Below are positions 6,260 to 64,000 of a DNA stretch of 64,000 nucleotides, one piece after another. Source of the DNA: a virus (taxonomy: Duplodnaviria; Caudoviricetes); IMG/VR virus record IMGVR_UViG_3300021399_000106, positions 1-64,000 of that record, one strand, 5' to 3'. Each line of letters starts with the position of its first letter. The first letter of the stretch is position 1. The notes under the pieces were generated by a model. It worked only from the letters and a program-made list of their open reading frames with translations. It was not told the DNA's origin and searched no databases. A program made the translations under genes and the position numbers.

Positions 6260-7480
6260 ATGCCAGTAACAGTAATGGATTGAGATAATAATACAGCTAA
6301 TTGTGTAAAAGGAATTAGTGATTACTCTATGCGTGATGCTTATAAAGATAATAACTTTTCATCATTTTATGATTATTTTGTTTATCCTTACTCTAAATCT
6401 AATATAAAAACTAGTGCCTTTAAATATAAACTTTCAACAGGTGATGATTATGTAACTTATCCTTTGGAGTATAATTTAACCTTAGATAAATATCCTACAG
6501 GTTGAGGAATACAGGAATGAAATAAGGCTATATTACTTAAAAATTTTAAATATAGTAGAACAAATAGTGGAGGAAGTCAAGATTTTTGTCCAGTACTTCT
6601 TGAACCTGGAACTGTTGTTTATGGTGGAACCTCAACTAGTGATACTTGTAAAGTTTTGAAATTTATTGGCGAGGATGTTACAATTGAAAGGGTAGATGAT
6701 TTTACATTAAAAATAAATAACGAACCTTATAGACGTTTACTTTTTAGAGATAGTTGTGTGCCAAAAAGATTGTATATTACTGTTCAAGCTGCCGGTGGAG
6801 GTGGTGGTGGTTCACAATATATGTTTATGAGTACAGGTATGGGTGGCTGTGGTGGAGCCTCTGGTGCTTATGCTTGTATGATTCTAGATTTAACTGCTGG
6901 TGATAGAATTTGACGTATAACTGGTGGAAAAGGTGGGGCCGGTGGTTATCATACTGGAACCAGTGGTAAACATGATGGAACTAAAGGAGATGCTACCTAT
7001 ATATCCTTACAAGTAAATGGGGAATGGCAAGACATTGCAACCCTATATGGTGGTGAAGGTGGATTAAGAGGTGACAATGGTTTTCATCAAAGAAATTCAA
7101 TTCCAGGTAAAATTGAATTCTACAATACAGATAAGAAATGATATTGGTGTCTGGAACATTCTCCTGAAAACACCGATACAGAATCTCCTGGACACGGTGG
7201 AACTGAAGGTAAAAAAGGTTCAGGTATTTCTACAAATGAAATGTTACTAGCTGATAATAGTAATAACATGTCAGGTTCTAAAGTTCAGTGACCAGCAACA
7301 TCTGGTAAAAGTAATAACAAAAAAGGTGGAGGAGGAGGCGAAGGTTTAGTGTCAGGAACAGGATATTTTGGAGGTCTTGGTGATGGTGGAAATGGTGGCG
7401 ATGCACCTGTTTCAAGTGGTGAAGATGGTAGAAAGGGTGATGATTCATCAATAACCATATACCTTCTATATGAAGAGTAA
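6260..7480 (+). CDS. glycine-rich protein, possible virion/tail-fibre-type (TGA=Trp)
   Basis: 406 codons open if 6 in-frame TGA are Trp; AAGGGGGG/GGxGGxG repeats; RBS AAGGAG. Confidence 0.75.
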
Positions 7481-7566
7481 ATAAATATAATAAAATAAAT
7501 TTATTTTAGGACTTGATTTTCAAGTCCTTTTATTATATAATAATATTGTAATAAGGAAATAGGTGA

Positions 7567-7863
7567 TTGGATATGAAGAATAGAAATTGCAAAATAGTAA
7601 AAGCTAGAAAGATTTATAAATGTGATTGTTGTAATTGTATGATTAATATAAATGATAGTTACTTAAGATTAAATATTAATAGAAAAGGTATATTCCATTT
7701 TTGTAAAGATTGTGAAGAGAATAATAAAGGTGGAATAATGCAAATTATAAAAGAAGATGAACTTGAATATAGTGAAGAAAAAGGTTCTGTATATGGAAAT
7801 TCAGCATTCTATGATGAAGAAGGTAAAGACATAACTGAAGACTTTGGATATAATGAATTTTAG
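7567..7863 (+). CDS. small Cys-rich (Zn-binding?) protein
   Basis: KARKxYKCDCC...HFCKDC. Confidence 0.6.
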   Translation: MDMKNRNCKIVKARKIYKCDCCNCMININDSYLRLNINRKGIFHFCKDCEENNKGGIMQIIKEDELEYSEEKGSVYGNSAFYDEEGKDITEDFGYNEF

Positions 7864-8313
7864 GAAAGGAATAATTAGATATGAGAAAGTTATATTATAT
7901 TGTATTTAATAATTGTGAAGGTTCATTTCCTCAAAGAGATAGTGAGAGTTATGACTATGATGAAGTTAAAAGAGAAGTAGATAAACTTAATTCTCAAAAT
8001 GATAATCCTTATTGTAATTACAGTGTAGGACAAAGAGAGGTAATGTAAAATGAAACAAATTAAATTCAAAGCTAGAAAAGTATCTAATAATAAAGTAGTA
8101 AGAGGTAATTGGTTTGTTGAATTAAGACCTAACAATCCACAAAGAATAGCAGAAATGTTAGTTGGAGAGAAACTTAAAAACTTTATGGTAGTTGTTAAAG
8201 ATGTAAAAACAAAGATGATAATGGAGGAAATTTAAATAACTAATTAAATATTAACAATTAAATAAAAAACTTAAAATAAAGGAAATTTGAAAGGTTTAAT
8301 TGTATAATATAAA

Positions 8314-8775
8314 TGTAATCAAGTGAAGCAACTATTAAGGATGTCCACTTCTATTAGGTCTAGCTAACTGAGATAGGTGAGGAAGGAATTAATAGTAGGG
8401 TTTGAAACCGGATGCGAGGCATGTAAGGTCCTACGTCGTAGTTTGGAGCCTAAGAGATGGTCTAGAACATCTTGTGTATCTTACGGTGGAGTCAATTCGA
8501 ATTATACGGCCACTTGGTTCGTCTCTAAGAGTATACAAAGTAAAGCCCTGGGGTAGAGCAATATTAAGAGTATCGTTAACACAACCGAACCGCTTTGTAT
8601 ACTGCTAGAGGCGAATAACCTCAAATTATTGAAATGTTGTTTTTTGAAATGTTGTTTTTCACAATATGAAAACTCTCCTGAACTAATGTAGCATCATTAG
8701 GGAGTGTAAAAACCTCAAGGTTAGTCCTTGTTCAGACTCCTCTGGTATATGGGTATGAGAGAAAAAATATACCAA
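8314..8775 (+). ncRNA. large structured ncRNA of unknown family
   Basis: GC-elevated non-coding stretch after TGTATAAT promoter; helices AGTATACAAAG/CTTTGTATACT, ACTATTAA/TTAATAGT, TGGTATAT/ATATACCA. Confidence 0.55.
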
Positions 8776-8783
8776 TTTAATAT

Positions 8784-8957
8784 GGGGCTACCCAAGAGAG
8801 AGGAGCACACGCTTTTAAACAAGTGGTAGCTAGAACCTTAATGTGGTTATCTACTGAGATATAATAGTATTGTTTGAAGTTCCGGATTAGTAAAACAATA
8901 AGTATGTATTTTGGTTTTTATTTGGTATTGTAAGTGCAAGTCTTACTGGCCCCGCCA
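8784..8957 (+). ncRNA. oversized (174 nt) tRNA-like RNA
   Basis: acceptor GGGGCTA/TGGCCCC+GCCA, T-arm GTAAG-TGCAAGT-CTTAC. Confidence 0.55.
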
Positions 8958-9216
8958 TATAAAAAATTACAAAGATAGAAAGATGCATATGATGATTGGG
9001 ACATTGTTACTTATTCACTAATGAATATCTTCTGTGGAATATTTAATACTTATAACTATACTCCATATTATGAAGAACATCCAGAAGAATTTGATTTCAA
9101 ACCTGTCAGAACTAAAGTAAGTGAAAAAAGTTATTAAAATATTAAAATTAGGACTTGATTTTTAACTAAAATTATTATATAATTAATTGTAGACAATAAA
9201 TAAGGAGGCAAATAAA

Positions 9217-9573
9217 ATGAAATATAATCTACAAGAAGCAATGAAAGAATTGAATAATGAGTATGAAAGAGAAGACATTTTCAGTCAAATTAGAAATGGC
9301 AAATTATTTGATATTTCTTATGAAAGTGGTAATGGAAATGAAGTTTTAACAACAACATTCCTTGCAAATAATGAAGAAGAAGCAAAGAATATGCTAATGT
9401 ATGAGATGGAAGATGACAATATTAACATTGTAGATGTCAAATTAAATGATGATTCAGGTTGGGGAGTTTTTAACGCTATATTAAATAATGTTAGAGACGA
9501 AGATAGAAATGATTTAGAAGGCATTATTATGAGAGCATTATATGATAGTAATATTATATATAAAAAGGATTAA
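9217..9573 (+). CDS. hypothetical protein
   Basis: ORF, RBS AGGAGG, promoter. Confidence 0.7.
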   Translation: MKYNLQEAMKELNNEYEREDIFSQIRNGKLFDISYESGNGNEVLTTTFLANNEEEAKNMLMYEMEDDNINIVDVKLNDDSGWGVFNAILNNVRDEDRNDLEGIIMRALYDSNIIYKKD

Positions 9574-9655
9574 TTTCTAATCCTTTTTTTTTATTTTTAG
9601 AGGTTGATTTAAAATGAATTGTATTATATAATATAAATGTAAATAACAACAAGGA

Positions 9656-10686
9656 GTGATTTATATGAAATTATATATGTTAACTGAATGGAATTCTGAA
9701 TATGGCTATGAAGAGATATGTGCTTTATCTACTAATAAAAAAGATTTAGAACCTTTTGACCCTGAGTATAATTCTATACAAGAGTTTGACTTACCTGAAG
9801 ATGGAAGTTTACATTTAAAACTTGTGTCAGGTCAATTTGAATTAGTGGATAAAGACGACAATATTATAAAAGAGGGAGTTAAACTTACTCATTAAATAAA
9901 GATAAGAGGTGATTGTTTATGACATTAAAGCAATTAGAAGAAATTAAGAAAATAGGAATACCTAGTGAAGAATTATTTCATGAAGTATGTGATGAATTAT
10001 TAAAGTATAAACAATTTGAAGAACAACAAATAGGTTGTCCTATAGAAGTTAGATGTGAGATATTACCTGATAGTTATATTTATACTTTTGGAACAAGTAT
10101 GGATACTATAGATGTTATTACTGGAAGAAAAGTTACTGCTATAAGTAGAGAAGGAATTCATATTTCATATGCTACTGCAAGTGGTAGAGAAAGAGATATG
10201 ACATTACCTTGGAGAGCTTATAAAAAGACTTGGTGGTTAAAATCAGATAGGAGTGAATAGTTATGACTAAATGTGATTTTTGTGTATATCAAACAACTTG
10301 TATATCAGCTGCAGGCAATACTAATTATAGACCCGATAGCTATGTAGGAAGTGAAGAATGTAGAGAAGCTCTTAAATCTTTTACAGAATATGTTATGTTA
10401 AAAGAGAGAAACAAGAGTAAAACAAAAACATATAATAAGAATATCAATTATAAGAAAAGATAATAAGAGAAATAATAGTATGAATAAATATGAAAATGCA
10501 TTAATAGAAATATTAAATGGTTTAGGTAATGGTAATTATAATTTATATCCTATTGAAGTAGACTTTGAACCAAAATATATATTATCTATTTCTACTGACG
10601 TCGATGATGATATAGCAATAACAGTAAGTGAAGAAACTTATAACTTATTAGTACAATTAGATAAGGATATAAATGGTAAGGAATAA
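9656..10686 (+). other. four short hypothetical ORFs (9656-9895, 9913-10260, 10263-10463, 10480-10686)
   Basis: ORF track, RBSs. Confidence 0.6.
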
Positions 10687-10760
10687 ATTATTTAAAATAA
10701 ATCTTGATTTTAATTTAATTTTATTATATAATATATTTGTAAAGGATAAGGTGATTAATT

Positions 10761-11216: not shown

Positions 11217-11311
11217 AATAGGTCTTCATTTAAAGAAGACCTTTTATTATATCCTAATTCACAATTATTACTAAATTATATATAATAATTTAAAATGAGG
11301 TTATGATATTT

Positions 11312-11551
11312 ATGACATATGAATCTACAAAAACTTTTAACTATAATGGTATTGAAGTTAAATATGACGCAGACTGAGATACTGCAAAAGATATAATGGA
11401 ACCAGTAAAAGATATTTATCAACAATATAAAGATAAATTAGATATTAAAGTTATAGACTTTTCTCAATATGATTTGAATTATTGTTTAATAGATGATAAA
11501 GTTTATAAGTTTAATCCAGATGATTATAAATGGTATCCTGAAGAGGAATAA
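11312..11551 (+). CDS. hypothetical protein (TGA=Trp), similar to C-terminal half of 4970-5452
   Basis: 79 codons with one in-frame TGA; RBS GAGG. Confidence 0.65.
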
Positions 11552-11581
11552 ATTTTAAATTTTGTTTAAGGATGTTTTATT

Positions 11582-12751
11582 ATGAATAAATTATTAAGCT
11601 TTGATGAAAAACTATGAAATGAATATTATAACATAGTAAATACTAAAATAAAGGAAATACTACCTGAAATAAGAACTATTATTAAAGAGTCTATATCTAA
11701 TAATTTTGATTCTCTTTCCGATAAAACTATTAGTGATTTATTTGATATTATACTTAATGATTTAATTAAGAGTGGATTATGTAAGAAGAATAGTAAATTA
11801 AAAGGTTATCCTTCCTTAAATATAAAATCAGATAATATATATGTTAAATATCTACCAATAAATGTTGACCTTTATAATTGTAATTTAAAAAATTATTATG
11901 AATCTCTTAGTATGTCATTAATGTTTGAAATTCAATCTACCGCTGGACCTAATGGGGTTTCAGTTGATTCAAATTTAAGTGATCACATATATCAATTTGA
12001 AAAAGAATTACGTAAAAAGGTTTATAAATGTGAATATAAATTAAATGATAATCAAAAACAACAAAGAAAAGATTTTGATATTAAAAATCAAATAATGCAC
12101 GGTTATAATTGTCCACCTGAGTATATAGATGATCTTAAACGTTTAGGTAAAGTAGTTAAGGCACCTAAAAATCCAAATAAGGAATTCCTAGCTTTAGAAT
12201 TTAATCAAAATGATTATTCTAAAATTAAATTATTTGATGCAAATAATGGTTCACTTGTAGGTTATATTGGTGTTAGAGGAAATGGTTTTATTGATGGTTT
12301 AAGAGTTAGTAATATGTATCAAGGATTAGGTTTAGGTAATTGATTATTTGAATATGCTTTAAATCATGGGGCTTATAAATTAGACTGTGCCGGTGTTAGG
12401 GCTATTGAACTTTATCATAAATATGGTTTTTTAGCAATTGGTGTATCATATGATGGAAATTATGATAAAATTAATACAGAGGAAAAATTTAAAGAATTCA
12501 AAGATAAATTTGATAATCGATTATATAAGGATTTCCGAGTAGCACATATGTATAAAAAGGACCACTTAAATGAAGTACCTATAACATTAGAATTGGCTAA
12601 AGAGGTAGATAAATATATTAGTGCAAATTATAAAGGTATGGAAGAGGAAGTACCTATTAAAATAAAAAATAAAGAAATTTTGGAAGAGTGGAATTATAAT
12701 TATTATACTTTACAAAATGGATTAAAGGTTAGATTAAGAAAAAGAGACTAA
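11582..12751 (+). CDS. GNAT-family acetyltransferase domain protein (TGA=Trp)
   Basis: joins 11912-12343 and 12548-12751 in frame; YQGLGLGN(W)LF and AIELYHKYGF GNAT motifs span the TGA. Confidence 0.75.
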
Positions 12752-22968: not shown

Positions 22969-25074
22969 ATGATAAAACTAATTTATGATGAATGTAATCC
23001 TACAAGAGATAGAAGACCTACAACTGAAGAAGATGTTGAAAATGATATTCATGTTGAGGAATTTAATAGTGTGAAGGATTTAATGGAGGAATTAGCCTAT
23101 TTAGCAGGATATGATTCCTTAGATGAATTCCTATATGAAGCTAATATGGATGCTAATGACTCTGATGCAGTAATTTCTGAATTACTTAGCTATTTTACTG
23201 ATCCTGGTGATGGTTCTGCAAATATTTTCTATTTAAATGTAGATGGTAAAGAATTTGATGACGTTATGCCTTATGATTCAGTTGCGGCATTAGATTTATC
23301 TAAAGCAACTAAGGAAGATGTTGTTAATGCTATTTTAGGTGAATCTTTAAATGAGTCTACAGAGAATGGCTATGAAATAAATTATAGTTGTTGGATTGAT
23401 GAAGAAGGTAATTTCGGACTTGAAGGTGATTTTGATACTGAAGAAGAAGCAATTGCTTATTGTAAAGATAATAACTACTATTCAGTAGAAAAACAATATT
23501 TTGATGGTAATGAAAGAGTAAAAACTGAAGAGATATTTATTAATCCTGATTATGTTGATAGCGATGAAATCGCTGATGCATATATGGATAATGATGAATA
23601 TTACGATGAAGAGGCTAAGAACGAAGATCCTTGGTATAAAGGTTCTGATGATGAGGATTACGATATTGAACTTGAGGATGACTCTGATTTAGAATTAGAT
23701 GAAAAATATTCTGACAATTACAAAAATGCTAGATATGAAAAACTAATCGGCAAAAAAATTAGAATCATTGATATAGATGATCCTTATGATGCTAAGGATT
23801 ATAATGGTAGAGAAGGTATAGTAGAATATGTTGCAACAAATTCTTTTGGTGATGTTTATCTTGATGGTACTTGGGGTTCATTATCAATTTATCCAAAAGT
23901 AGATACCTTTGAGTATGTTAATGAAACTAATGAGTGTATTAATAATTCAATAGAAGAAGGTTTATTTGACTCAGAAAAAGAACCCGTAAATTATGGTCAT
24001 AAAGCTTGGGTTTTAAATAAAATAATTTCTTCAATGAATAATGAAGGTGCATATTATGAAACTGGGTGGTTATATATTTGGCCAGATGGAGAAACTGAGG
24101 AAGAATGCGATGATGACTTCGGTGATTACGATTCATTTAAAGAATTAGAGGATGAATTTATTTCAATTTATAAGTATAATTATGATCAAGAAGGTGATGA
24201 TTATAATTTCCATGAAGGTGGTTTATATAATCCAACAAGAGAAGCAGTTGAATTAGCACATGAATATGATAAAAAACTAGGTTTAGAACCTATTGCAGTT
24301 TTAGGAAATGTTAAAGAGTGTGTTGATGATGTTAGATTTGCAGAATCTGTAGAAACTGATAATTTAGAAACATTTGATGATAAAATGGATTTCTTAGCAG
24401 GTGATGAAGAAGAAGCAATTGATGGATATGATGAAATAATTCCTGAAGTTGAAGATGAACATATAAAAGATCAATTAACTCATATTAGAGATGAGGAAAA
24501 AGCACATAAAAAATATTTAAATGATGTTAAGGAAGATCCTTCAATTGATTATGAGGATCCTGAGGAATTAGAGGAAGGTATAAACGAAGATATAAATAAT
24601 TACGAATTAAATTACGAGGATTGCGATTTCGGTCGTACCGATGGTGAATATTACTTCTCTACTAATATTTCACAAAATGATAATGAGGATGACAATTTAC
24701 AAATAACAATAGATTGTGAAACAGATAAGGATGATATTAACTGTTATTATGATGAGATTGAAAAATTTCAAGGTTATTCATATGGAGAAAATGTTGTGGA
24801 ATTAGATCCAAATGATGTTAGAACAGGAGTTATCTATTCAACTTGGGATGATTTTAGTAAAAAATTCACAAAGGATGAAGTTGTAAATGTTTATGGTATT
24901 AGTGCTGAAGATTTAGAGGCATTAACAAAAAAGGCTACAGATGAGGCTGTTGATAAATTTATAGATGATGTTATAGAATATTATTCCGAAAATATGGATG
25001 AGTTAATTCCTGAAGATGATGGACCAGATCCTGATTATGAATATGAACGTTATAGAGATATGAGAGATGAATAA
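22969..25074 (+). CDS. very acidic multi-module protein (DUF4314-like and ferritin-like segments); possible capsid-internal polyprotein
   Basis: modules separated by LGESLNES/IEEG/FAES/LEEG; EEEAIDGY..HIRDEEKAH ferritin-like; IIDIDDPY..GIVEYV..WGSL. Confidence 0.6.
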   Translation: MIKLIYDECNPTRDRRPTTEEDVENDIHVEEFNSVKDLMEELAYLAGYDSLDEFLYEANMDANDSDAVISELLSYFTDPGDGSANIFYLNVDGKEFDDVMPYDSVAALDLSKATKEDVVNAILGESLNESTENGYEINYSCWIDEEGNFGLEGDFDTEEEAIAYCKDNNYYSVEKQYFDGNERVKTEEIFINPDYVDSDEIADAYMDNDEYYDEEAKNEDPWYKGSDDEDYDIELEDDSDLELDEKYSDNYKNARYEKLIGKKIRIIDIDDPYDAKDYNGREGIVEYVATNSFGDVYLDGTWGSLSIYPKVDTFEYVNETNECINNSIEEGLFDSEKEPVNYGHKAWVLNKIISSMNNEGAYYETGWLYIWPDGETEEECDDDFGDYDSFKELEDEFISIYKYNYDQEGDDYNFHEGGLYNPTREAVELAHEYDKKLGLEPIAVLGNVKECVDDVRFAESVETDNLETFDDKMDFLAGDEEEAIDGYDEIIPEVEDEHIKDQLTHIRDEEKAHKKYLNDVKEDPSIDYEDPEELEEGINEDINNYELNYEDCDFGRTDGEYYFSTNISQNDNEDDNLQITIDCETDKDDINCYYDEIEKFQGYSYGENVVELDPNDVRTGVIYSTWDDFSKKFTKDEVVNVYGISAEDLEALTKKATDEAVDKFIDDVIEYYSENMDELIPEDDGPDPDYEYERYRDMRDE

Positions 25075-25397
25075 TAGTAATTTATAGTTGATTTATCAAA
25101 TAAAACCGGACTTTTTATATCCGGTTTTTATTTTTGTATTAAAAAATATTAAAATTCATTTAAGTAGTATTGTATAAATATATAAAGATTATAATGAGGT
25201 GATATATATGAAACAGTACACATTACTTTATATTATGGATGATACAAAGGTAGTTCATAATAAAACATTTTTACAACTTAAAGATTTAAAAGACTTTAAA
25301 AATTATCAATTAGAGTTAAAGGAAGATTTACAACAAGTTGATAAAGATGGTTATGTATGGTTTGTAGAAAATAACTTGGAATAGGTAAATAACAAGT

Positions 25398-26450: not shown

Positions 26451-26459
26451 AATTAAATT

Positions 26460-26831
26460 ATGAAAGCAAAAGAAGTACTAGAAAAATTAAATATTACAAG
26501 ACCTACATTAACAAAGTATGTTAAACAAGGATTAGTAAAGGTTGACAGCGTAATAAATGGTCAATATAATTATAATGAAGAAAGTGTAAATAAATTATTA
26601 GATGGAAATTGAAACGCTAATTCAACAACTAAAACAATAACTTTAAATAGTGCAAATACACGAATAGTAACTAGAGATAGAATAACTATTGAAAACTTAA
26701 CTGAAATATTAAAAGATACTGTAAATATATTTGATACATTAATTCAGTTAAGAGTATTACCACCAGTTATAAGTGATCAAGTTATTAATATAAATAAAAG
26801 ATGTAACAATATATTAAATGAAAAAGATTAA
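26460..26831 (+). CDS. MerR-like HTH DNA-binding protein (TGA=Trp)
   Basis: MKAKEVLEKLNITRPTLTKYVKQG; TGA at 26610 read through to TAA 26829. Confidence 0.65.
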
Positions 26832-43233: not shown

Positions 43234-43235
43234 TT

Positions 43236-43310: not shown

Positions 43311-43315
43311 TATAT

Positions 43316-43630: not shown

Positions 43631-43634
43631 AAAT

Positions 43635-43725: not shown

Positions 43726-43738
43726 TTTGAAAGGAATA

Positions 43739-44284: not shown

Positions 44285-44347
44285 TTAAAAAATATAATAT
44301 TTTGGTAAAAGATATTGTATATATAATATGTAAAATAAAAATTTAAG

Positions 44348-44410
44348 AGACACAGACAGCAAACAATTAATGCAATCAACTTTTAATTGATCAGGCAAAA
44401 ACGTGTCTAG
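44348..44410 (+). ncRNA. clamp element E3 in 5' UTR of DUF2828 gene, carrying a Lys(TTT) anticodon stem-loop
   Basis: AGACAC-AGACAGCAA..ATCAA-CTTTTAA-TTGAT..AAAC-GTGTCTAG directly before RBS. Confidence 0.7.
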
Positions 44411-44425
44411 AAAGGAAGATTAATT

Positions 44426-46647: not shown

Positions 46648-46875
46648 ATGTTATTTTTAGAAACAAGTTCAGAATCTATGACATTATTTACAGCTTTAGT
46701 AATTGTGTTAGTAATAGCATTAGGAATAGTTGTATTATTAATTACATTAAAAACTAATCGATTATTTCCTTTTCATAAAATGCATAAAGAAGATGAAGAT
46801 AATTGTTATGATATGAATCTAAGAAAATCAAGTTCAGTAAAAAAGGATGAAAGAGGAAATAAATGGAAACATTAG
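46648..46875 (+). CDS. small membrane protein
   Basis: single TM helix, RBS GAGGTG. Confidence 0.6.
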   Translation: MLFLETSSESMTLFTALVIVLVIALGIVVLLITLKTNRLFPFHKMHKEDEDNCYDMNLRKSSSVKKDERGNKWKH

Positions 46876-48197
46876 CTAAGTTTAAAGAATTTGTTGATGA
46901 AATTCAACAAAATAATTCAAGAAATTATAAATTAGAAGTTTTAAAGAAATGATCCGATAATCCAATAATTCGTGTATATTTAGATTTTATTTATAATCCT
47001 TATAAGATTACTGGTATTTCAGAAAAGAAGTTATATAAGGAAATTTGAATGGAATCTGAAGAGATTACAAGTATGTATCAGCTTATGGATTATTTATTAA
47101 CTCATAATACCGGTAGAGATGAAGATATTTGTAAGGTTCAGCAATTCAAAGATTTATTAGATGTTGATTATTATGAATTATTTGATGCTATAATTACAAA
47201 ATCATTAACATTAGGTGTTGATGTATTAAGTATTAATAAATGTATGGGAAACTTCATTCCGCAATTTTCAGTCCAACTTGCCAATAAATATTTTGATAAA
47301 CCTGAAATTGTAGAAGGTAAATCATTTGCATTAACTAGAAAAATTGATGGATCCAGAATTATTGCTATTAAAGAAAATGGTGAAGTTACCTTCTATACTA
47401 GACAGGGACAATTATATGAGGGATTGGTTGATTTAGAAAAAGAAATGTTAGAAACTATGCCTGATAATATTTGTTTAGATGGTGAATTAACTATATTAGA
47501 TGCTAATGGTTTAAGTAGTAAAGACCAATATAAAGCGTGTATGAAAATTTCTAGAAAAGATGGAATTAAACATGGTTTAAAAATGTTAGTATTTGATTGT
47601 ATGAATGCGTCAGAATTTAAAAATCAATTCTGTAATAGACCATATAAGAGTAGAAGACAAATGCTAGTTCAAATTTTTAGAAATAATTTTGTTATGGATG
47701 GGGTTAACTATGATTCTGATTTAGCAAATCTAAACCATACTTATTTTGAAATGTTACCTATTTTATATGAAGGTGAAGATACACAACAAATAATGCCTAT
47801 TCTAAATAAAATGGTTGATAATGGCGAAGAAGGTATTATGATTAATATTTTAGACGCACCTTATGAGTTCCGTAGGACTCCGAATTTGTTGAAAGTCAAA
47901 AAAATGCAAGATTTAGATTTAGAGGTAATTGGTTATGAAGAAGGCTCTGGAAACTTTGCAGGAATGTTAGGTGCTTTATTAGTTAGATATAAACAAGGAA
48001 ATACTGTTAAAGTAGGTTCAGGATTGAATAAAGAATTAAGACAAGAAATTTGGAAAGATCCTGATTCATATATCGGTAAAATTATTTCAGTTCAATATTT
48101 TGAAGAAACAACAAATCAAAATGGTGGATTGAGTTTGAGATTTCCAGTCTTTTTAGAGTTTAGAAATCCAGCAGATAAAAACGTAGCAGATTTTTAG
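46863..48197 (+). CDS. ATP-dependent DNA ligase (TGA=Trp)
   Basis: KIDG, LDGEL, EEGIM, LLKVKK, KVGSG, SLRFPVF; N-terminus extends through TGA 46950 and 47046. Confidence 0.9.
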
Positions 48198-48207: not shown

Positions 48208-48468
48208 ATGTATATAGAGCCAAAAGTAAATGAATTAAAAATTGGAGATAGCGTATATATTAGACAAACTGCACCAATGGACGATGAAGAAGAATATCGT
48301 TTTTATGAATCTATAATTTATAAAATTGAAGGAGATAAAATTTATAGTAAATATACTACAAATAATCTAAAATTTAATTTTAAAAAGGAAGATGTATATT
48401 ACATAGAAGGTAAAGATAAATACTATGTAAATAGATTTGAAACTCGTTGGAATGGAATATACGGATAG
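48208..48468 (+). CDS. hypothetical protein
   Basis: ORF, RBS AGGAGG. Confidence 0.65.
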   Translation: MYIEPKVNELKIGDSVYIRQTAPMDDEEEYRFYESIIYKIEGDKIYSKYTTNNLKFNFKKEDVYYIEGKDKYYVNRFETRWNGIYG

Positions 48469-48479
48469 GGGATAGAATT

Positions 48480-48911
48480 ATGGCATATAGAACTTATATA
48501 AATGGTCATGAATGGTTAGGCAATAACGTATTATATGATGAAATATATGATGAATTAAAAAGACAAGGTTGTCCATTTGATGAAGATTGTTGTGTAGGCT
48601 GAGAAACACCATTTGAGGTTAAGGATTTAGATAGTTTAGTTAAGGCAACAGAAAAAGCTATAATTAACTTATATAACAAAAGAATACAGATAAAAGAGAA
48701 TATTGCAGATTTTTCTGAGTATATTACTCATCCTATTGGTGATCTCACTTGGCAATTACAAGAAGCTAGAGACTATGGTTACATATTTATAAGTGCAATG
48801 TTATTAGAATATGTAGGAGAATGTCATAAACAGTGGGATTTCGAATTTACTAAATCAGGTATGAAATATGTACTAATTAATGATGGTAAATGTTTATTTT
48901 CTGCTTATTAA
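48480..48911 (+). CDS. hypothetical protein (TGA=Trp)
   Basis: 143 codons, one TGA at 48600; fills the gap between neighbours. Confidence 0.7.
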
Positions 48912-48922
48912 GGAGGAGTAAT

Positions 48923-49429
48923 ATGAACTATAATTTTGATAAAGATATATTATATCAAGTTATGACCGAAGGAATATGGTATTATAATAAATTAGGAGAA
49001 GTAGGTCATAATACAAACGTAAAAGTAGATACACATTATATTAATTTTAAAGTTTTTGGAAGAAATATGGGTTTTAATTGGAAAGATTTAAATATAAAAT
49101 TCTTTTTAACCAAAAATGAAGCTGAAAAAGCAGCTAAAGAATATTTAGATTATCTACTAAAATATGTTGATATTAGTACTCTTAAAAAGATAGTTAATTT
49201 AAAAGAAAATGATGAAATAGTTGAATTAAGTTCTTCAAAACATTTATTTCATAGAACAGTTGAACAGTATTCTTACTGGGATAAAAAGAGAAAAACATTT
49301 ATTATTGTAAGTGAATATGATGACGATTATGGTGGAGGATATGATGAATTTGAATATCCTATTCATGAATATGGTCATTCTTGGTTTTTAACTGAAAAAG
49401 ATGCAAAGGAACATATTTATAATTCGTAA
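48923..49429 (+). CDS. hypothetical protein
   Basis: RBS AGGAGG; start re-called. Confidence 0.7.
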   Translation: MNYNFDKDILYQVMTEGIWYYNKLGEVGHNTNVKVDTHYINFKVFGRNMGFNWKDLNIKFFLTKNEAEKAAKEYLDYLLKYVDISTLKKIVNLKENDEIVELSSSKHLFHRTVEQYSYWDKKRKTFIIVSEYDDDYGGGYDEFEYPIHEYGHSWFLTEKDAKEHIYNS

Positions 49430-49461
49430 TAATTGTATATTTATAAAAGGAGAATTAGATT

Positions 49462-49881
49462 ATGAGTGATTTAAATTCGTTAGTTTTTAGTAAAAAAGAG
49501 CAAGAATTAGGATTGCATTTAGATTTTATAAATACATTATTAAAATTAAATAAAGAAAGTACAGATCATTATATAGAATTTTTAGTTAGACAAGAAGAGG
49601 ACTTTGTAATTATAGAATGATGTCAAATTAATTATCATTGTGAGGATTGTTATAGTCATTTTAAATTAGTTGAACCTGACCAAGTAGTTATGCTAGAATA
49701 TAGATTTCCTGATAACCACACTGAATATGTTTTTAGTGAAGAAGAAGGAAAAGAATTATTGGACGAATGATTAAAGGAAAATCCTGGTTGGGAAAAAGGT
49801 CCTTATGGTACTTGATATAATAAAATTGAGAATGATAGATTAAGAAAAGAATTTGGTTTAGATAAAGAAGGTAACGAATAA
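49462..49881 (+). CDS. hypothetical protein (TGA=Trp)
   Basis: 139 codons, three TGA; RBS AAGGAG; stop overlaps next ATG. Confidence 0.7.
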
Positions 49882-52062: not shown

Positions 52063-53193
52063 ATGGAATTAGCGTTATTAAAATTTATAAAAGAACATGA
52101 AAATTGGGAAGAATTATTAACTAGAGACCCATATAACCTAAAAATAAATAGAGATGGTAAATATATTATATTTAAATATAATCAATTATGTTCTGATTTT
52201 AATTTACCAGAAGTTCAAGAAGCCCGAGGTATAATTTTTAGAGAATCAGATTGGAAGTGTGTTTGTCACGCCTTCAATAAGTTTGGAAATTATGGTGAAT
52301 CATATTGCCCTGAAATAGATTGGTCAACTGCATCTGTTCAAGAAAAAGTTGATGGTTCATTAATGAAAGTTTGGTATGATGAATATTGGCATATATCAAC
52401 TAATGGTACTATAGATGCTTTTAAAGCACCATTAGAATGTGCTAATAAAGAAATAACTTCTTATGGAGAACTATTCTTATATTGTTTAAAAGAAAATAAA
52501 CCTTCATTTCCATTTCAAGATTTTATTTCATTTTTAGATAAAGAATATTGTTTTATGTTTGAAATGGTATCACCTTATAATAGGGTTGTTATTGAGTACC
52601 TTGAATCTAAGTTATATTATTTAGGATGTAGAAATATGAGCACTCATCAAGAGTATGGTTTTGCAGATTATTTTCATATTCCATTTGTTAATGGTTTGGG
52701 TAATATATTAAATATGCCAAAACTATATCCATTACATACCTTAAAAGAAGTTCAAGAAGCAGCAAATGCCTTACCTTGGAATGAAGAAGGTTATGTAGTA
52801 TGTGATGCTAATTTCAATAGAGTTAAGATTAAATCTCCAGAATATGTTTTAGCGCATCACGGAAGAACTAATGGTAATATTTCTATTTCAAGATTATTAG
52901 AAATAATTTTAAATAATGAGATAGATGAATTCTTAATTTATGCAGATGAATATAAAGATAAAATAAATAATTTAATTGCTGAAATGGAATTATTTAAAAC
53001 TCAAGTTAAATTAGAAATTATAAATCTAGCTCCAGCAAATTATACTTCAAGAAAAGAATATGCAGAAGTAGTTAAGAGATACCCAGCATATATGCAATAT
53101 TTCTTATTTAGATATAAAACTATTAATGAAGAATTTAAGAAAATAAATATTTCTGGTTGGAAAAAGATATTAAGTGCGAGAGGCATTATTTAA
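52063..53193 (+). CDS. T4 Rnl1-like RNA ligase
   Basis: EARG, KFGN, EKVDGSL, FEMVSPYNRVV, EEGYVV, RVKIKSPEY. Confidence 0.85.
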   Translation: MELALLKFIKEHENWEELLTRDPYNLKINRDGKYIIFKYNQLCSDFNLPEVQEARGIIFRESDWKCVCHAFNKFGNYGESYCPEIDWSTASVQEKVDGSLMKVWYDEYWHISTNGTIDAFKAPLECANKEITSYGELFLYCLKENKPSFPFQDFISFLDKEYCFMFEMVSPYNRVVIEYLESKLYYLGCRNMSTHQEYGFADYFHIPFVNGLGNILNMPKLYPLHTLKEVQEAANALPWNEEGYVVCDANFNRVKIKSPEYVLAHHGRTNGNISISRLLEIILNNEIDEFLIYADEYKDKINNLIAEMELFKTQVKLEIINLAPANYTSRKEYAEVVKRYPAYMQYFLFRYKTINEEFKKINISGWKKILSARGII

Positions 53194-53217
53194 AAATAAT
53201 TAAGGAGGAAATACTTT

Positions 53218-54763
53218 ATGCAATCAACTATAATTTTTGAACGAGAATCAACTTATAAACCTAATTTTAAAATTAGAACGGTTAAAGTTAAATTTGAAGA
53301 TACAGATAATACTGTTTTATACTTTTCCCAAGTTCTTAATGGGGATTCAATTATATTTCAACAAACGTATAAAAATAAAACTTACGCTATAAGTAAAGCA
53401 AAACAGTTTGATGATGATTTGGCTTGGCATAAAGATATAAATATATTAAATTTATTATATAATAAACAAGAGAAAGAAGGACTGATTAAAAATGATTAAA
53501 ATAATAAAAAATGGAAAATTACCTAAAGAAGATAAGGTGATATTTAGAACAAAATGTGATAAATGTAATTGTGAGTTTAAATTTGAGCAAGAAGATTTTA
53601 CTAAAATTGAGAGACGTATTGATGGATATTATTTTATAGCCTGCCCATGTTGCGGTTATGAAATTGTCGGTAAATATGAAGACTTTAATCCTCAAGTGAT
53701 TAAAGTAGATACTAAGGAGGAATAGATTATGAGTTGTTATATTAGAAGTAAAGATGGTATATTTGGCGTATTGAATTTAGGAGAATTCTATACTGATAAT
53801 GTAGGAGATTATCCTTTAGAATATGCTTTAAAAACCGCTAGTAATCCAATAGAATTATGTGATGGTTTTTATATTGATCATGAAGATAGTAAGTTTAGTC
53901 TAACAAGAGTTTTTTCAGATTTTGACAAAGCAAAAACTTTGTATGATTCATTTAAAAAATTAGGAATTAAAGTAAAGTTAATCGGTTTTATTAAGACAGA
54001 TAAAGGTTTATTATTTTGTCTTATATATGACGATGAAGATAATAGGTTTTTTACTTTGTGGGAAAATATAGATTTTAAATATTACAATAAATGGAAAGAT
54101 AGTGTAATTAGAGGTGAATAAATAATGGAAAAAGAAAAAATGCCAATGACGTTGTGTGGTTATCAAATACCAAGCAAAGATATAAAAATTAGGAAAAAAT
54201 ATTTGGCTTCTGATGGTTGGAGATGGTATATAGAAGTTGCCGATTATGGGTGGGTTATATCTAATGCACCTGGATATGAAACATATACCAAAGACGGTTA
54301 TAAAAACAACTTAGGTTATGAAAAGAACTTTGAAGAAGCATATCAGTGGTTATTAGAAACATGTAAAAGAAATGACTGGACATTAAAAGAGATAGGAACT
54401 TCAGAAGAAGAAAAAGAAGTTTTGGATGATGAAGAATGTAATTTAGATATAAATAAGTCTTTATATAATATTGAAAATAGAAAAATATATGAATATGATG
54501 ATGACATCGCTATTTTATTCTATAAAGGATATAAAGTAGCAAAAGGAACCGTTGAAACATTTAGATGTAATTGGTGTGAAGAAATGAGTAATTGTAAGGA
54601 TATGAACGATTTTCTAGATGATATTGGTGTAGAACTTGTCGTAGAATTAGATGATGAGGATGTTAAAGATAATTGGGAACACATTTGGGATGAGTTGGAG
54701 TGGAATGAAGAAAGTAAATCGTATAAATATAAAAATTGGGAATGGATTGTATTAGATCTTTAA
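53218..54763 (+). other. four hypothetical ORFs (53218-53499, 53492-53725 Zn-ribbon, 53729-54121, 54125-54763)
   Basis: ORF track, RBSs. Confidence 0.65.
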
Positions 54764-54809
54764 TTTTTAATTGTATTATAATTATATTAGAATAAACAGG
54801 AGGTAACAT

Positions 54810-55835
54810 ATGATAAAATTTATAATGTTAATTGGTTTACCAGGAAGTGGTAAATCTACCTACGCAAACAAATTAATAGATAATAATACCGTATGGTTAT
54901 CTTCTGATAAAATAAGAGAAGAAATTTATGGAACTGAAGAGGAACAAAAAAATCCAGCATTAGTTTTCTCAATTATGTTTGATAGAACAGTTGAAAATCT
55001 AAATAATAATAAGAATGTTATTTATGATGCTACAAATATTAATAGAAAACTTAGAAAAGATTTATTAGATAGATTAAAAAGAAAAGTAAATAATGTCTAT
55101 TATGAATGTGTGCTAGTATATACAAACTTAGAAGAATGTAAGAAAAGAAATTCAAAAAGAGATAGAAAAGTTCCTGAATCTATAATTGATAAAATGGTTA
55201 AAAATTTTGAAGTTCCTGTTAAAGGAGAAGGTTGGGATAATATTGAAGTTAATTATACAACTAAACCATCAGTACCTTATGATAAAGTTATTGATATTTT
55301 TGTAAGTAAAGAGCCTCATGATAATCCTCATCATAATATGGATATTGATTTACATATGTATGCTGCTTGGGATTATTATGTAACACATTATGAATATGGT
55401 ATAGATAATTATTTAAAATATGCCATCTTATTTCATGATATAGGTAAGAAATTCTGTAAAACATATTATAATAGAAGGAATGAATTATGTGAAAAGGCAC
55501 ATTATTACCAACATGCAAATGCTGGAGCATATTTCGCTTTTGATATAGATTTTTCTAATTATAATGACCCTTATTTTGATGGAATATATCAAGATAAAGA
55601 ATTTACAGAAAATGATAAATACAATATGATAATATTAATTAACTATCATATGAGACCTCTAGAAGCTTGGAAGGATTCTAAAAAATCTGAAAATAAAGAT
55701 AAACTAATTTTAGGTGATAAATTATTTAATTATCTTGAAATATTACATGATTGTGATAAGAATTCTGAAGAGGATGAAAAGTTTGTTAAATGGTTTCTTG
55801 AAAAAATGGTTAAGGTATATAGAGGTGAAAACTAA
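54810..55835 (+). CDS. polynucleotide kinase-like (AAA_33 P-loop) fused to HD domain
   Basis: GLPGSGKST, SSDKIR, YDATN, RN..R; H..LFHDIGK..H..HM..D. Confidence 0.82.
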   Translation: MIKFIMLIGLPGSGKSTYANKLIDNNTVWLSSDKIREEIYGTEEEQKNPALVFSIMFDRTVENLNNNKNVIYDATNINRKLRKDLLDRLKRKVNNVYYECVLVYTNLEECKKRNSKRDRKVPESIIDKMVKNFEVPVKGEGWDNIEVNYTTKPSVPYDKVIDIFVSKEPHDNPHHNMDIDLHMYAAWDYYVTHYEYGIDNYLKYAILFHDIGKKFCKTYYNRRNELCEKAHYYQHANAGAYFAFDIDFSNYNDPYFDGIYQDKEFTENDKYNMIILINYHMRPLEAWKDSKKSENKDKLILGDKLFNYLEILHDCDKNSEEDEKFVKWFLEKMVKVYRGEN

Positions 55836-56897: not shown

Positions 56898-57202
56898 TGG
56901 TTGATAAAAATTTTAGAGACAGATTAAATTATTATTGCGAAATTAATGAAATTGATGATGAGGATAGACCTTTAATTTTAGATAATTCAGCATATGATAA
57001 TTCAATAATTGGTATTAGTAATGATAATAGATTAATTTATGATTATGGAAAAATGCTTGTTGAATATTCTCAAGATAATAAATGCACTATTGAAGAAGCA
57101 ATGGAATGGATTGAATATAATACTATAAGAGCAATAGCATATAATAGTGATGAGCATAAACCAATTATAATTTATAATAGACAAGTTATTGAGGAGATAT
57201 AA
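56897..57202 (+). CDS. hypothetical protein
   Basis: YDNSIIG..IYDY..EEAMEWIEYN. Confidence 0.7.
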   Translation: MVDKNFRDRLNYYCEINEIDDEDRPLILDNSAYDNSIIGISNDNRLIYDYGKMLVEYSQDNKCTIEEAMEWIEYNTIRAIAYNSDEHKPIIIYNRQVIEEI

Positions 57203-57759
57203 TGATTGATAAACAAGATATTAAAGTTGAAATATTAAAATATCCAACAGAACAAGATTGGCTATGGGCTAAAACTTGTACTTTAAATACTGTAGGTAAA
57301 AAATTAAAATCTTCAACAAAAAGTGTTGATAATGAATATAAGGCAAAATTATTAGCATCTGAACATAGTCCTATTAGAGAATTATGATTTGGTATTAGAT
57401 TAACAATCCCATATTTCATTTCAGTTCATATAGTTAGACATCATATTGGTTGTAACCATTATGTATCAACCCAGAGAGATGATAGACATCCTGAAAGAGA
57501 AATATCAAGAGAGGATTTACCACAAGGACAATTCGTATCTCATATTTTATCAATTAATGCACAGGAATTAATGTTCTTTATGCATAAAAGATTATGTAAT
57601 CAAGCAGATCCTATAATGAGATATGTAGCTAATATGATAAAGAAAGAAGTATTAAAAACAAATCCTGAATTTGAAGGATTATTAGTTCCTTTATGTGAAT
57701 ATAGAAATAATAAATGCACAGAAATGTTCCCTTGTGAAAAAGCTAAAACTTTTAATTAA
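57202..57759 (+). CDS. thyX: ThyX-like flavin-dependent thymidylate synthase (TGA=Trp)
   Basis: EHSPIREL(W), VHIVRHH..VSTQR, INAQEL..KRLC..A; TGA at 57385 joins two ORFs. Confidence 0.75.
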
Positions 57760-61225: not shown

Positions 61226-61393
61226 ATTAAATAGATATTATTTTTACGCAAACTTTTCCTTTCATAGCGTTTAAATAATATCTTTTTTTATTGATTATTG
61301 TATATTTAATTAGCAGAATTTAATAAGAATATTTGAGTTTATATTATATAAAATACTCTTTAAATTGTATATTAACGTAAAGGAGTTGATTAA

Positions 61394-62068
61394 ATGTCTT
61401 GTTGACTTGAAAATGAGTGTAAAAAACTTCATTGTAATGATAAAAATGGTTGTATGATTCAATATAAATTAGATTATTTATTTAATGAAGCAGGCATACC
61501 TTTAAATAGAAGAAAATCTCAATCCTTAGTAACAGATGCAGATGGCACTGACAGAGAACAATTTATTAAATTAAAATCTATTCAAGATAATATTCTAGAT
61601 TTTGTAAATAATGGTGATAATTTATATATTTATAGTATTCAAGCAGGTAATGGTAAAACATCTTGAGCGATAAGATTATTACAAAGCTATTTTAAAAAAA
61701 TATGACTTAAAACAGAATTAAAATGTAGAGCTTTGTTTATAAATGTTCCAAGTTTTCTACTAGCATTAAAAGCGAATATTAATGAACCTAATGAGTATTA
61801 CAAACATATAAATGAATATGTTTTAGATTGCGATTTAGTTATTTGAGATGATATTGGAAACAAGGTAGGAACTGAATTTGAAATCTCTCACCTTTTAAGT
61901 ATTATTGACACAAGAATAAATAGTGGAAAAGCAAACATTTATACATCAAATATTCTACCTGAACAATTAGGTAATTTATTAGATATTAGATTAGGTAGTA
62001 GAATTGTAAATGCATCAGAATGCATTCAATTTAAAGGCGGAGATAAAAGATCTCTTAATTTAGAGTAG
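61394..62068 (+). CDS. DnaC/IstB-like helicase loader ATPase (TGA=Trp)
   Basis: Walker A GNGKTS(W), Walker B LVI(W)DDIG, YTSN, RLGSRI, GGDKR; four in-frame TGA. Confidence 0.88.
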
Positions 62069-62085
62069 CAAGGAGTTATAAGTAA

Positions 62086-63351
62086 ATGGTACAGTTACAA
62101 ACATTAAATAAAATATTACAGGATAAAGATCCTTCAATAATAACTTTAAATAATTTAAATGCAGATTATTTTCCAGAATATATTCCTGAGTTTTACTTTA
62201 TTAAAGAGCATCTAGATAAATATGGTTGTTTACCTGATATAGAAACATTTACAGCTAAGTTTGAGGATTTTGATGTTATTGAAGTTAATGAGCCTACAGC
62301 ATATTTGTTAGAGGAACTTTATAATGATAAAATTAGAAGAGATTTAACTAATGGATATAATCAGTTAAGACCCCTATTAATTAATGGGGATAAAGATGCT
62401 ATTGATAAAGCATTAATGCTAGTTAAAGAAACTGCAGAGAAGTCCGCTCAAGCAATAAGTTTAAATTGTGTTAACTTGTTTGAAGACACAAGTAGATATG
62501 ATGCTTATGTAGAAAGAACTGAAAATTATGATAAATATTTTATAACTACAGGATTTGATGAGTTAGATAAGGTTATTGGCGGTTGAGATGTAAAGGAAGA
62601 ATTAGCTACTATAGTTGCAAGAACTGGTATAGGTAAATCATGGTTTCTTATTAAATCTGCAACGGCTGCTGCATTACAAGGAAAAAGAGTAGGTATATAC
62701 TCAGGTGAAATGTCTGCTAATAAAGTTGGTTACAGAGCGGATACCTTAATAAGCCATTTATCAAATGGAGCATTAATTCATGGTGGTGCAAGTGTTAAAA
62801 ATGAATATAAAAGATTCTTAGATGAATTAAAGGAAAAGAATTTAACTTGTTATGTTTTAACACCAAAAGATGTTAATGGAGCAGCAGGTGTATCTGCATT
62901 AAGAGCATTTGTTGAAAAATATAATTTAGATGTATTATATATTGACCAACATTCATTACTTGATGATGATAGAAAAGCTAAGAATCCTGTTGAAAGAGCT
63001 GCAAATATATCTAAAGATTTAAAGATATTACAGGTTACTAAACAAATTCCAATTATTACAGTATCACAACAAAACAGAGAGCAAGTTGAAGGAAAAACAT
63101 TTGATACAACTCAATTAGCTCAATCTGATAGAATTGCTCAAGATTCAACTATTATTATATTTATTGAAAGAAAAGCTGATTTATTTAAATTACATTTAGT
63201 AAAATCAAGAGATACAGAAAATGGTAAGGTATTATCATACAAAGTTGATTTAAATACAGGTACTTTTCAATACATTGTTGAAAATGAAGATGGTGAAAGC
63301 ACTCAAGTACAATATGGAGATACCACTTATTCAGAAGACGAGGTATTTTAA
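62086..63351 (+). CDS. DnaB-like replicative helicase (TGA=Trp)
   Basis: TGFDELDKVIGG(W)..ARTGIGKS, SGEM, YIDQ, SQQNR, SDRIAQD, KSR. Confidence 0.92.
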
Positions 63352-64000
63352 TGAATAACTATATTGAAGTTAAACGTAGACGTATATATACTCCTTTATG
63401 GGATATTATTATGGATATTAAAAGACAACTTCATAATGGTAAACTTAGAGAAGTTAGAACACCTAAGGATAATAATATTAGAGTAACATGTCCACATCAT
63501 AAAAATGGCTTAGAATCTGATCCAGATTGCAATATTTATATTGGTCCTGATATGAAAGATGCGTCAGGTAATCTTATTGTAGCTTATGGAACAGCTAACT
63601 GTTTTGCTTGTGATTTTAAAGGTGATTTTGTAAAATTTGTAGCAGAATGTTTTGACAAAAGTTATGAATGAGCAGCAGATTGGCTTATCGATAATTACTA
63701 TACTGGATCTTATGTTGAAGATATTGAGCTAGAACCTATTATATTAGCTAAATCTAAAAGACAATATCTTCCAGAATCAATTCTAAATGAATTTGAAGAT
63801 TTTCATCCATATATGTTACAAAGAAAATTAACAAAAGATGTAATTAAAGAATTTGAAATAAAGTATGATCCAAAAACAGAATGTTTAGTATTTCCTGTTA
63901 GAGATGAAAAAGGTAAATTGTGAATGCTAACAAGGCGTTCTGTTAAGGATAAAAAATTCATAATAGATAAAGAGAAACAGAAACCTGTATATTTATTATA
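63351..64000 (+). CDS. DNA primase, partial (TGA=Trp)
   Basis: CPHH..CFAC zinc finger, YMLQRKL, LVFPVRD; TGA at 63669 and 63921 read through. Confidence 0.85.

Follow-up and report, generated by a model that had tools for sequence, protein, structure and literature searches.

Staged reassignment of UGA to tryptophan as the probable reason for class-graded TGA use in a large tailed phage

The first 64 kb (hereafter the window) of the 166,546-bp virus record IMGVR_UViG_3300021399_000106 belong to a large, tailed phage of an anaerobe, in which UGA encodes tryptophan and is used by only a subset of the genes. The TGA load is graded by gene class, and the genes for the putative decoding kit, an opal suppressor tRNA(UCA) and a tryptophanyl-tRNA synthetase (TrpRS, encoded by trpS), are free of TGA. 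A staged code switch, which had been raised as a possibility in a preliminary description made from the letters of the window alone, turned out to be the best explanation for this pattern: the window probably covers the early and middle portion of a phage genome in which UGA is given over to tryptophan in the course of infecting a host that reads this codon as a stop.

The record is linear, has a GC content of ∼27% and a CheckV completeness of 93%. It encodes 32 tRNAs and a transfer-messenger RNA (tmRNA) within the window. Its replication set comprises a PolA-type polymerase, a DnaB helicase, a Toprim primase, and a DnaC-like loader; a SNF2 helicase, an anaerobic NrdD, a UvsX-like recombinase, and SbcCD-like nucleases are also encoded, and the virion set consists of tail sheath, tube, baseplate hub, and tail fibres. 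The INPHARED phage collection yielded no close relative, only short, chance-like matches. Two relatives were retrieved via the polymerase (the phage under study is designated G000 where the three are compared). G001, a 100.8-kb fragment from a different metagenome record with a PolA 81% identical, is also TGA-recoded (gene coverage increases from 0.78 to 0.96). G002 (156 kb, 97% complete, PolA 46% identical) reaches a coverage of 0.90 under code 11, ends 49 of 207 genes with TGA, lacks a tRNA(UCA), and its orthologs contain no real in-frame TGA. G002 is a standard-code phage.

Results

UGA is a sense codon and stands for tryptophan

Under code 4, greedy gene coverage was 0.903, compared with 0.739 under code 11, and genes averaged 211 aa instead of 162; the code 11 call fragments the genome, and 62 "genes" then end in TGA. 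Open reading frames (ORFs) with a length of 100 aa or more take up 47% of the plus strand, and 66% once TGA is read as sense. When TAG was read as sense, almost no coverage was gained. Under the TGA-sense code, all 226 genes end in TAA (171) or TAG (55), which the caller imposes to the extent that it is unable to end a gene in TGA. The spread of TGA along genes is an independent check: it is even, without the pile-up at gene 3′ ends that would be a sign of residual TGA stops. The earlier impression that no gene convincingly terminates with TGA was, thus, borne out.

A naive code 4 ORF call returned 16 window genes with in-frame TGA. Two starts among them were artefacts: that at 58546 (true start at 58585; its three "TGA" codons lie within the overlap with the end of the upstream gene) and that at 12830 (true start at 12866). 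The remaining 14 genes, with 29 TGA codons, agree well with the approximately 15 counted before. Small members of this group (starting at 11303, 28064, 29604, 37814, and 48447) are supported by ORF continuity only; elsewhere, conserved domains run across the in-frame TGA codons. All five sequence motifs previously highlighted for an internal TGA were recovered (GNGKTS* at 61646, LVI*DDIG at 61835, VIGG*DVK at 62572, GLGLGN*LF at 12323, and EHSPIREL*F at 57361). In the helicase loader, TGA codons include ones beside Walker A and Walker B; its ortholog in G001 has two TGA and two TGG codons, that in G002 no TGA and three TGG.

The identity of the inserted residue was determined from alignment columns in which TGA had been masked as X, so that the alignment could not be steered by it. 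At 56 masked columns, G002 has tryptophan 24 times, phenylalanine six times, tyrosine five times, leucine four times, cysteine once, and glycine never, with background frequencies of 1% for tryptophan and 5% for glycine. At TGG columns, tryptophan was found in 41 of 74. G001 has TGA 65 times and tryptophan 31 times at the same TGA columns, and 75 TGA codons are in register between G000 and G001. Because the masked columns show tryptophan, no glycine, and cysteine in 1 of 56, TGA encodes tryptophan in this phage, as the preliminary description had assumed, and not glycine, cysteine, or selenocysteine. This relatives-based test replaced an approach via PDB alignments, which had given only weak hints at TGA sites (codon 690 of NrdD aligns with phenylalanine; sites in PhoH align with alanine, leucine, and valine).

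TGA load is graded across gene classes

The whole record contains 209 TGA and 353 TGG codons. From 1 to 61.3 kb, 25 TGA (21 without the two start artefacts) compare with ∼181 TGG, and in the remainder 184 with 171. Tryptophan-containing genes without any TGA number 98, compared with 62.3 ± 5.6 expected, and only 54 runs along the genome were counted, compared with 88.6 ± 6.4 in shuffles. TGA is, thus, strongly clumped and not distributed by chance, as the restriction to a subset of genes noted earlier implies; ∼100 contiguous genes, small phage-only ORFs included, are TGA-free. Within the window, trpS, the five nicotinamide adenine dinucleotide (NAD)-salvage enzymes, Tpt1, two RNA ligases, a kinase-like protein, phosphoesterases, and a DUF2828 protein belong to this group. 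The TGG-only use reported for trpS, the NAD enzymes, and the ORF at 57779–58582 (10 TGG) was confirmed, as were the counts given for the loader and for the gene at 6260–7480, including its ATG start at 6260.

At least one TGA is present in the loader, DnaB, primase, PolA, ligase, SNF2 helicase, NrdD, UvsX-like recombinase, and SbcCD-like nucleases; the sliding clamp and the clamp loader have none. The core replisome (loader, DnaB, primase, PolA, and ligase) is, therefore, not made at full length without UGA decoding. Tail-fibre and large virion genes carry 5–14 TGA codons each. That replication genes are recoded was, thus, described correctly, but a concentration there does not hold genome-wide, as virion genes carry more; the replication-centred impression arose because the window holds few of the late genes.

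Three promoter-like motifs, designated E, M, and L, occur preferentially between genes and in gene orientation. The sigma-70-like E motif, TTGATT-N17-TATAAT, occurs 11 times in the genome (0.55 expected), of which 10 are intergenic and co-oriented with the gene, whereas a generic sigma-70 scan was uninformative in DNA this rich in AT (164 hits vs 164 expected). The M motif, TTGTATAWT, has 37 intergenic sites, and the L motif, ACTAAATTA, has 27, 22 of them gene-co-oriented. The L motif lies upstream of sheath, tube, baseplate hub, tail fibre, and large virion genes, and also ahead of the TGA genes that stand alone, at 6260 and 11303, within the otherwise "early" block. When each gene was assigned to its nearest upstream motif, TGA/TGG counts were 0/19 (E), 90/280 (M), and 111/52 (L), corresponding to TGA shares of 0, 0.24, and 0.68 (chi-square p = 2e-23). 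The M class comprises auxiliary metabolism, tRNA and RNA repair, replication, and recombination; the replisome genes fall into it, and so do the tRNA array and the suppressor tRNA with trpS. TGA use is, thus, graded by gene class over the whole genome, with the top share in the L class and not in replication. A graded TGA load with virion genes highest is the published late-gene pattern. In G001, TTGTATAWT and ACTAAATTA are also strand-biased; in the standard-code G002, they occur at chance level.

Within the L class, some genes are free of TGA in both G000 and G001: sheath (0 TGA/5 TGG), tube (0/4), and the operon at 22969–26450 (0/9). The baseplate hub is also TGA-free. This suggests a second pressure, acting on very abundant proteins, that keeps sheath, tube, and the probable capsid operon free of TGA.

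Suppressor tRNA and TrpRS

The tRNA(UCA) is an ordinary cloverleaf of 76 nt with an A1-U72 pair, the discriminator base A73, an encoded CCA end, and the acceptor sequence ACCGGCG; a TTGTATAAT motif precedes it at 38130. The gene trpS (0 TGA/2 TGG) starts 70 nt downstream of it. An ordinary tRNA-Trp(CCA) with G73 is encoded separately, at 39772–39847 within the tRNA array. Among the phage and candidate-host genomes, the nearest look-alikes of tRNA(UCA) are tRNA-Thr and tRNA-Met, not tRNA-Trp; its charging with tryptophan is, thus, inferred from the codon columns and not from the identity of the tRNA.

G001 also encodes a tRNA(UCA) (99556–99631), with a Trp-like AGGGG acceptor and G73, beside its ligase gene. 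Despite polymerases that are 81% identical, the suppressor tRNAs of G000 and G001 have only 51 of 76 positions in common, and by this comparison they are unrelated; an ortholog of the G001 suppressor was sought in the G000 genome, and none was found.

Selection against TGA in TGA-free genes

Synonymous sites are near saturation between G000 and G001: lysine, glutamate, and glutamine codons ending in G are A-ending in G001 at 55–63%. In TGA-free genes, TGG of G000 corresponds to TGA in G001 at only 8 of 96 sites (p = 1e-16), compared with 11 of 42 in TGA genes. Preservation of TGG at near-saturated divergence argues for selection and not for lag. In TGA-tolerant genes, TGA and TGG differ at 31% of conserved tryptophan sites; for lysine, glutamate, and glutamine sites, the corresponding values are 22–29%. 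Comparison of the two sequences thus indicates that purifying selection keeps TGA out of the TGA-free genes, whereas TGA is near neutral in the others. As lysine, glutamate, and glutamine are specified by the A-ending codon 75–90% of the time, the 68% TGA of the L-class genes is close to mutational equilibrium. Within genes, TGA is uniformly positioned and shows no 5′ bias.

Host and related phages

The nearest bacterial TrpRS (57–58% identical) are from gut and rumen metagenome-assembled genomes (MAGs) titled Bacilli or Acholeplasmatales; that of an Anaeroplasmataceae MAG is 53% identical. All four such MAGs tested have two release-factor genes each, without in-frame stops. A Mycoplasmatales MAG, in contrast, has a TrpRS 47% identical and one release factor with in-frame TGA. 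Contigs matching a 20-kb late region of the phage occur in three MAGs among the 307 of the Acholeplasmatales-titled order. Two sets of Clostridia genomes, of 46 and 300, had no match. The phage-bearing MAGs, like those with the nearest TrpRS, have genes for release factor 1 (RF1) as well as genes of the release factor 2 (RF2) type. PncB had no match in candidate-host MAGs and 26–27% identical matches in two of five Clostridia MAGs, from which nothing can be said on host affinity. On this indirect evidence, the host is probably a standard-code, Acholeplasmatales-like (Mollicutes-like) gut bacterium. The code 4 host, against which the preliminary description had set the preference for TGG, is not supported by the RF2-type genes of the TrpRS neighbours and of the phage-bearing MAGs, or by the selection against TGA; these point, though indirectly, to a host with the standard code.

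Two of the matching contigs in MAGs of this order were whole genomes of related phages of the same family. G209:C133 (123.5 kb) follows the standard code, and 20% of its stops are TGA. G291:C4 (126.7 kb) is TAG-recoded: it contains 502 in-frame TAG, and its coverage of 0.60 becomes 0.94 under code 15. Including the phage under study, one family, thus, uses all three codes.

Other genes of the window

Features of the window are compiled in Table 1. The glycine-rich-domain protein gene has a good ribosome-binding site and is preceded by a late-type ACTAAATTA motif at 6220–6228. In the GNAT-domain protein, the domain (residues 215–288) spans a TGA at codon 254.

The operon behind the ACTAAATTA motif at 22921 starts with a 701-aa protein (0 TGA/7 TGG) containing a weak encapsulated-ferritin-like segment. 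The product of 25398–26450 (350 aa, 0 TGA/1 TGG) resembles capsid families among its Atlas look-alikes (0.94) and has a TM of 0.51 to Gp23; from these structural resemblances, it is probably the major capsid protein, and 22969–26450 is probably a head operon, placed within the "early" block and preceded by a late-type motif. PDB searches with 25398–26450 and 22969–25074 returned nothing. The last gene, 26460–26831, encodes a helix-turn-helix (HTH) protein (HTH_17/MerR-like, residues 1–49), the only TGA of which is codon 51, followed by 72 open codons. It would yield a 50-aa HTH protein before, and one of 123 aa after, the code switch.

The ligase ortholog of G001 is 89% identical over its full length and likewise has two TGA; that of the ORF at 49462 has 2 TGA/3 TGG. 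In the ThyX-like gene, listed before among the TGA genes, the TGA at codon 62 is real (G001 has histidine in this column), but the name ThyX derives from a weak, partial match below the cut-off.

The tmRNA (27577–27991; Rfam, 70.8 bits) encodes a tag peptide ending in AALA; it is possibly of interest, as this phage would cause translation to stop early at UGA. An 89-nt tRNA at 1014–1102 was recognized by Rfam (41 bits) and not reported by ARAGORN, and may carry an insertion. Outside the window, a 7-deazaguanine (queuosine-type) cluster at 73.7–79.8 kb (QueE-, QueC-, GTP-cyclohydrolase-, and tRNA-guanine-transglycosylase-like; mostly TGA-free) suggests that the phage DNA may carry a 7-deazaguanine modification. 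The Gp23-type head module of G002 (140.7–156.3 kb) has no counterpart in the contig of the phage under study.

Table 1. Position of features in the window and the evidence for them
Feature	Position	Strand	Evidence and remarks
Eight E-type promoter-like sites	1705..10732	+	Several just after terminator hairpins; 0 TGA/19 TGG behind them
Glycine-rich-domain protein, 6 TGA/2 TGG	6260..7480	+	Pfam Gly_rich_2 across three TGA codons
82-aa ORF (1 TGA) and GNAT-domain protein (2 TGA)	11303..12751	+	ACTAAATTA motif at 11270
Operon behind ACTAAATTA motif at 22921	22969..26831	+	Motif scan, domain searches
Small ORFs 28064–28420 and 29604–29804, one TGA each	28064..29804	+	ORF continuity only
NAD salvage: nicotinamidase-like, NadE, Nudix, NAPRTase, NMN adenylyltransferase-like	29073..33840	+	Trp codons all TGG
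103-aa ORF, 2 TGA/0 TGG, directly upstream of suppressor tRNA	37814..38125	+	No family match
tRNA(UCA), opal suppressor	38184..38259	+	ARAGORN; Rfam tRNA 65.8 bits
trpS, tryptophan--tRNA ligase	38329..39315	+	Pfam tRNA-synt_1b 6e-65; NCBIfam TIGR00233 321.5 bits (cut-off 176.75)
tRNA array, ∼29 tRNAs	39772..43725	+	ARAGORN, Rfam
Tpt1 RNA 2′-phosphotransferase and DUF2828/DUF7788 protein, TGA-free	43727..46057	+	Domain searches
ATP-dependent DNA ligase, TGA at codons 30 and 62	46863..48197	+	Pfam DNA_ligase_A_M, OB_2
ORFs 48447–48911 (1 TGA) and 49462–49881 (3 TGA)	48447..49881	+	ORF call
RNA repair (T4 Rnl1-like RNA ligase, kinase-like AAA_33 protein) and adjacent genes	52063..55835	+	Trp codons all TGG (26)
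ThyX-like protein, TGA at codon 62	57202..57759	+	Partial weak match, 27 bits (cut-off 88)
DnaC/DnaI/IstB-like AAA+ helicase loader, 4 TGA/0 TGG	61394..62068	+	Domain matches; TTGTATAWT motif at 61365
DnaB-type replicative helicase, TGA at codon 167	62086..63351	+	DnaB_C 5e-27 across TGA
Toprim primase, 3 TGA/2 TGG; gene runs to 64334	63351..64000	+	Domain match

Discussion

In the scenario favored here, host RNA polymerase and ribosomes would first express the TGA-free genes. Suppressor tRNA and TrpRS would then accumulate, and only after that accumulation would the full-length replisome, recombination proteins, and most virion proteins be made. The TGA load of a gene would mainly be a record of how late its product is needed: under the G-to-A mutation pressure of a genome with 27% GC, TGG would turn into TGA wherever a premature stop is harmless. 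Delayed replication and assembly would then be a consequence and not a purpose-built gate. Very abundant late proteins (sheath, tube, hub, and the probable capsid operon) may have remained TGA-free owing to imperfect suppression in competition with RF2 of the host.

Several observations weigh against this scenario. The E, M, and L motifs were defined after the TGA labels had been seen, and reading their classes as early, middle, and late is by analogy with T4-type phages. The suppressor tRNA and trpS share their motif class with the replisome genes, so that any delay could come about only through accumulation. The suppressor tRNA has A73 and a body that is not Trp-like, so that its assignment to tryptophan comes from the codon columns; in the nucleotide following TGA, no bias toward weak termination was seen (p = 0.73 vs background). 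No gene for RF1 or another release factor (PF00472, PF03462) was found in the 166.5-kb record, which is ∼93% complete, nor was any other means to counter host RF2 found in it. With respect to the host, 3 of 307 versus 0 of 346 is not significant, MAG binning of phage contigs is weak, and the TrpRS identity is only 58%. The linear contig, ∼93% complete, likewise yielded no terminase, portal, or lysis gene; those for head packaging may be in the part of the genome that is not assembled.

That TGA stands for another residue (glycine as in code 25, cysteine, or selenocysteine), or that the in-frame TGA codons are pseudogene breaks or assembly errors, is so improbable as to be negligible. It is true that ARAGORN labels the UCA tRNA "SeC", and that the suppressor body is not Trp-like, but the label derives from the anticodon, and tRNA-Sec identity was rejected, as the 76-nt standard cloverleaf has neither the extended acceptor nor the extended variable arm of the long tRNA-Sec form. 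Tryptophan accounts for 43% of the residues at TGA columns, with the aromatics next, TGA codons are in register with those of a phage from a separate metagenome record, and conserved domains continue through them. A host natively using code 4, of the Mycoplasmatales type, would also account for TGA as a tryptophan codon; the TGA-free genes would then have been acquired from phages or bacteria with the standard code, too recently for drift to have set in. A genome with 27% GC, the TrpRS of the Mycoplasmatales MAG with its single, TGA-containing release factor, and the fact that many TGA-free genes are bacterial-type auxiliary genes would fit. This explanation is nevertheless very unlikely. TGG is preserved in TGA-free genes (8% changed, compared with 55%) despite saturated synonymous sites, which speaks for selection and not for lag, and the ∼100 contiguous TGA-free genes include small ORFs known only from phage. 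Moreover, the closer TrpRS relatives and the MAGs with phage contigs have RF2-type genes, members of the family use code 11 or code 15, and a native code 4 host would render a tRNA(UCA)/TrpRS kit of the phage's own unnecessary. Nor is TGA used genome-wide regardless of class (98 TGA-free genes vs 62 expected).

Whether the TGA codons of the replisome are positively selected checkpoints, holding back replication until the phage tRNA(UCA) and TrpRS are active, is a separate question from the code switch itself. The distribution of TGA over replication and recombination genes is compatible with such a dedicated gate, and so is the fact that G001 orthologs mostly keep at least one TGA (UvsX does not), as is the TGA-free decoding kit. 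However, TGA is uniformly positioned along genes and shows no context bias in the following base, and TGA/TGG flips at a rate similar to that of synonymous changes look like near-neutral drift; in addition, clamp and clamp loader are TGA-free, the TGA share is lower in replication than in virion genes, and tRNA(UCA) and the replisome genes belong to one promoter class. A dedicated gate is, thus, unlikely. Of the idea, put forward in the preliminary description, that replication is gated on the phage's own UGA decoding, the dependence of the core replisome on this decoding remains, as a consequence; a purpose-built gate is not supported. Equally doubtful, and offered as a speculation, is a stricter form of the code switch, in which code 4 would be imposed on the standard-code Acholeplasmatales-like host by a private pair only (the A73, non-Trp-body tRNA(UCA) charged by the phage TrpRS, without RF1), the TGA loads of 0, 24, and 68% would act as a translational timer making replisome and virion synthesis strictly dependent on this pair, and related phages would arrive at the same result by swapping in unrelated suppressor tRNAs or the other stop codon.

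Phages of standard-code Firmicutes and Bacteroidetes that use TGA for tryptophan have been described, as have clades of recoded phages mixing codes 11, 4, and 15 (Borges et al., bioRxiv 10.1101/2021.08.26.457843). According to the same study, Jade phages carry a "code change module" written in standard code and consisting of suppressor tRNA, TrpRS, and RF1; structural and lysis genes are recoded, and replication genes "variably" so, with most of them recoded in Lak phages (bioRxiv 10.1101/2021.08.26.457843). The phage under study adds to this already described kind, the TGA-to-Trp code-switching phages. It resembles Agate and Jade phages in being a large phage from a gut or rumen type of setting in which TGA encodes tryptophan, with its own tRNA(UCA) and code-change genes in standard code, in its heavily recoded virion genes and several recoded modules across the genome, and in the presence of codes 11, 4, and 15 among relatives within one family; the Agate and Jade clades themselves are defined by large-terminase phylogeny. 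Unlike the two Jade genomes with TrpRS, it has no RF1 gene; unlike the Agate example, in which replication genes are unrecoded, its replisome is recoded; and its suppressor has A73 and a non-Trp-like body. With Lak megaphages and crAss-like phages it shares host-code-compatible early and recoded late genes, and with Lak phages also the mostly recoded replication genes, but these phages have Bacteroidota hosts, mostly reassign TAG to glutamine, and belong to other phage families. With Mgcod, dual coding in blocks has been reported for phage genomes (bioRxiv 10.1101/2022.06.29.495998), which are likewise divided into standard-code blocks and blocks needing a reassigned stop; the blocks of the present phage are finer, down to single operons (6260–7480), and follow motif class. 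As in Mycoplasma and Spiroplasma with code 4, UGA is read as tryptophan via tRNA(UCA); in contrast to these bacteria, where TGA occurs genome-wide and RF2 has been lost, TGA is graded by class in the phage, and RF2-type genes persist in the probable host clade.

T4-like phages run early, middle, and late transcription programmes. The present phage is similar in having sigma-70-type promoters at one genome end and later genes behind short motifs lacking a −35 element, and differs in that its motifs are TTGTATAWT and ACTAAATTA, for which no recognizing factor was found here.

In principle, nothing is changed by this phage; it adds a well-resolved case to the known code-switching phages. Its particular features are a TrpRS plus A73 suppressor module without RF1, a recoded core replisome, and a TGA load tied to three motif classes. 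The comparison with a close relative is direct evidence that selection, and not lag, keeps the early genes TGA-free. With its standard-code and TAG-recoded sisters, the family is well suited to deciding whether such recoding has a regulatory role or simply follows from mutation pressure.

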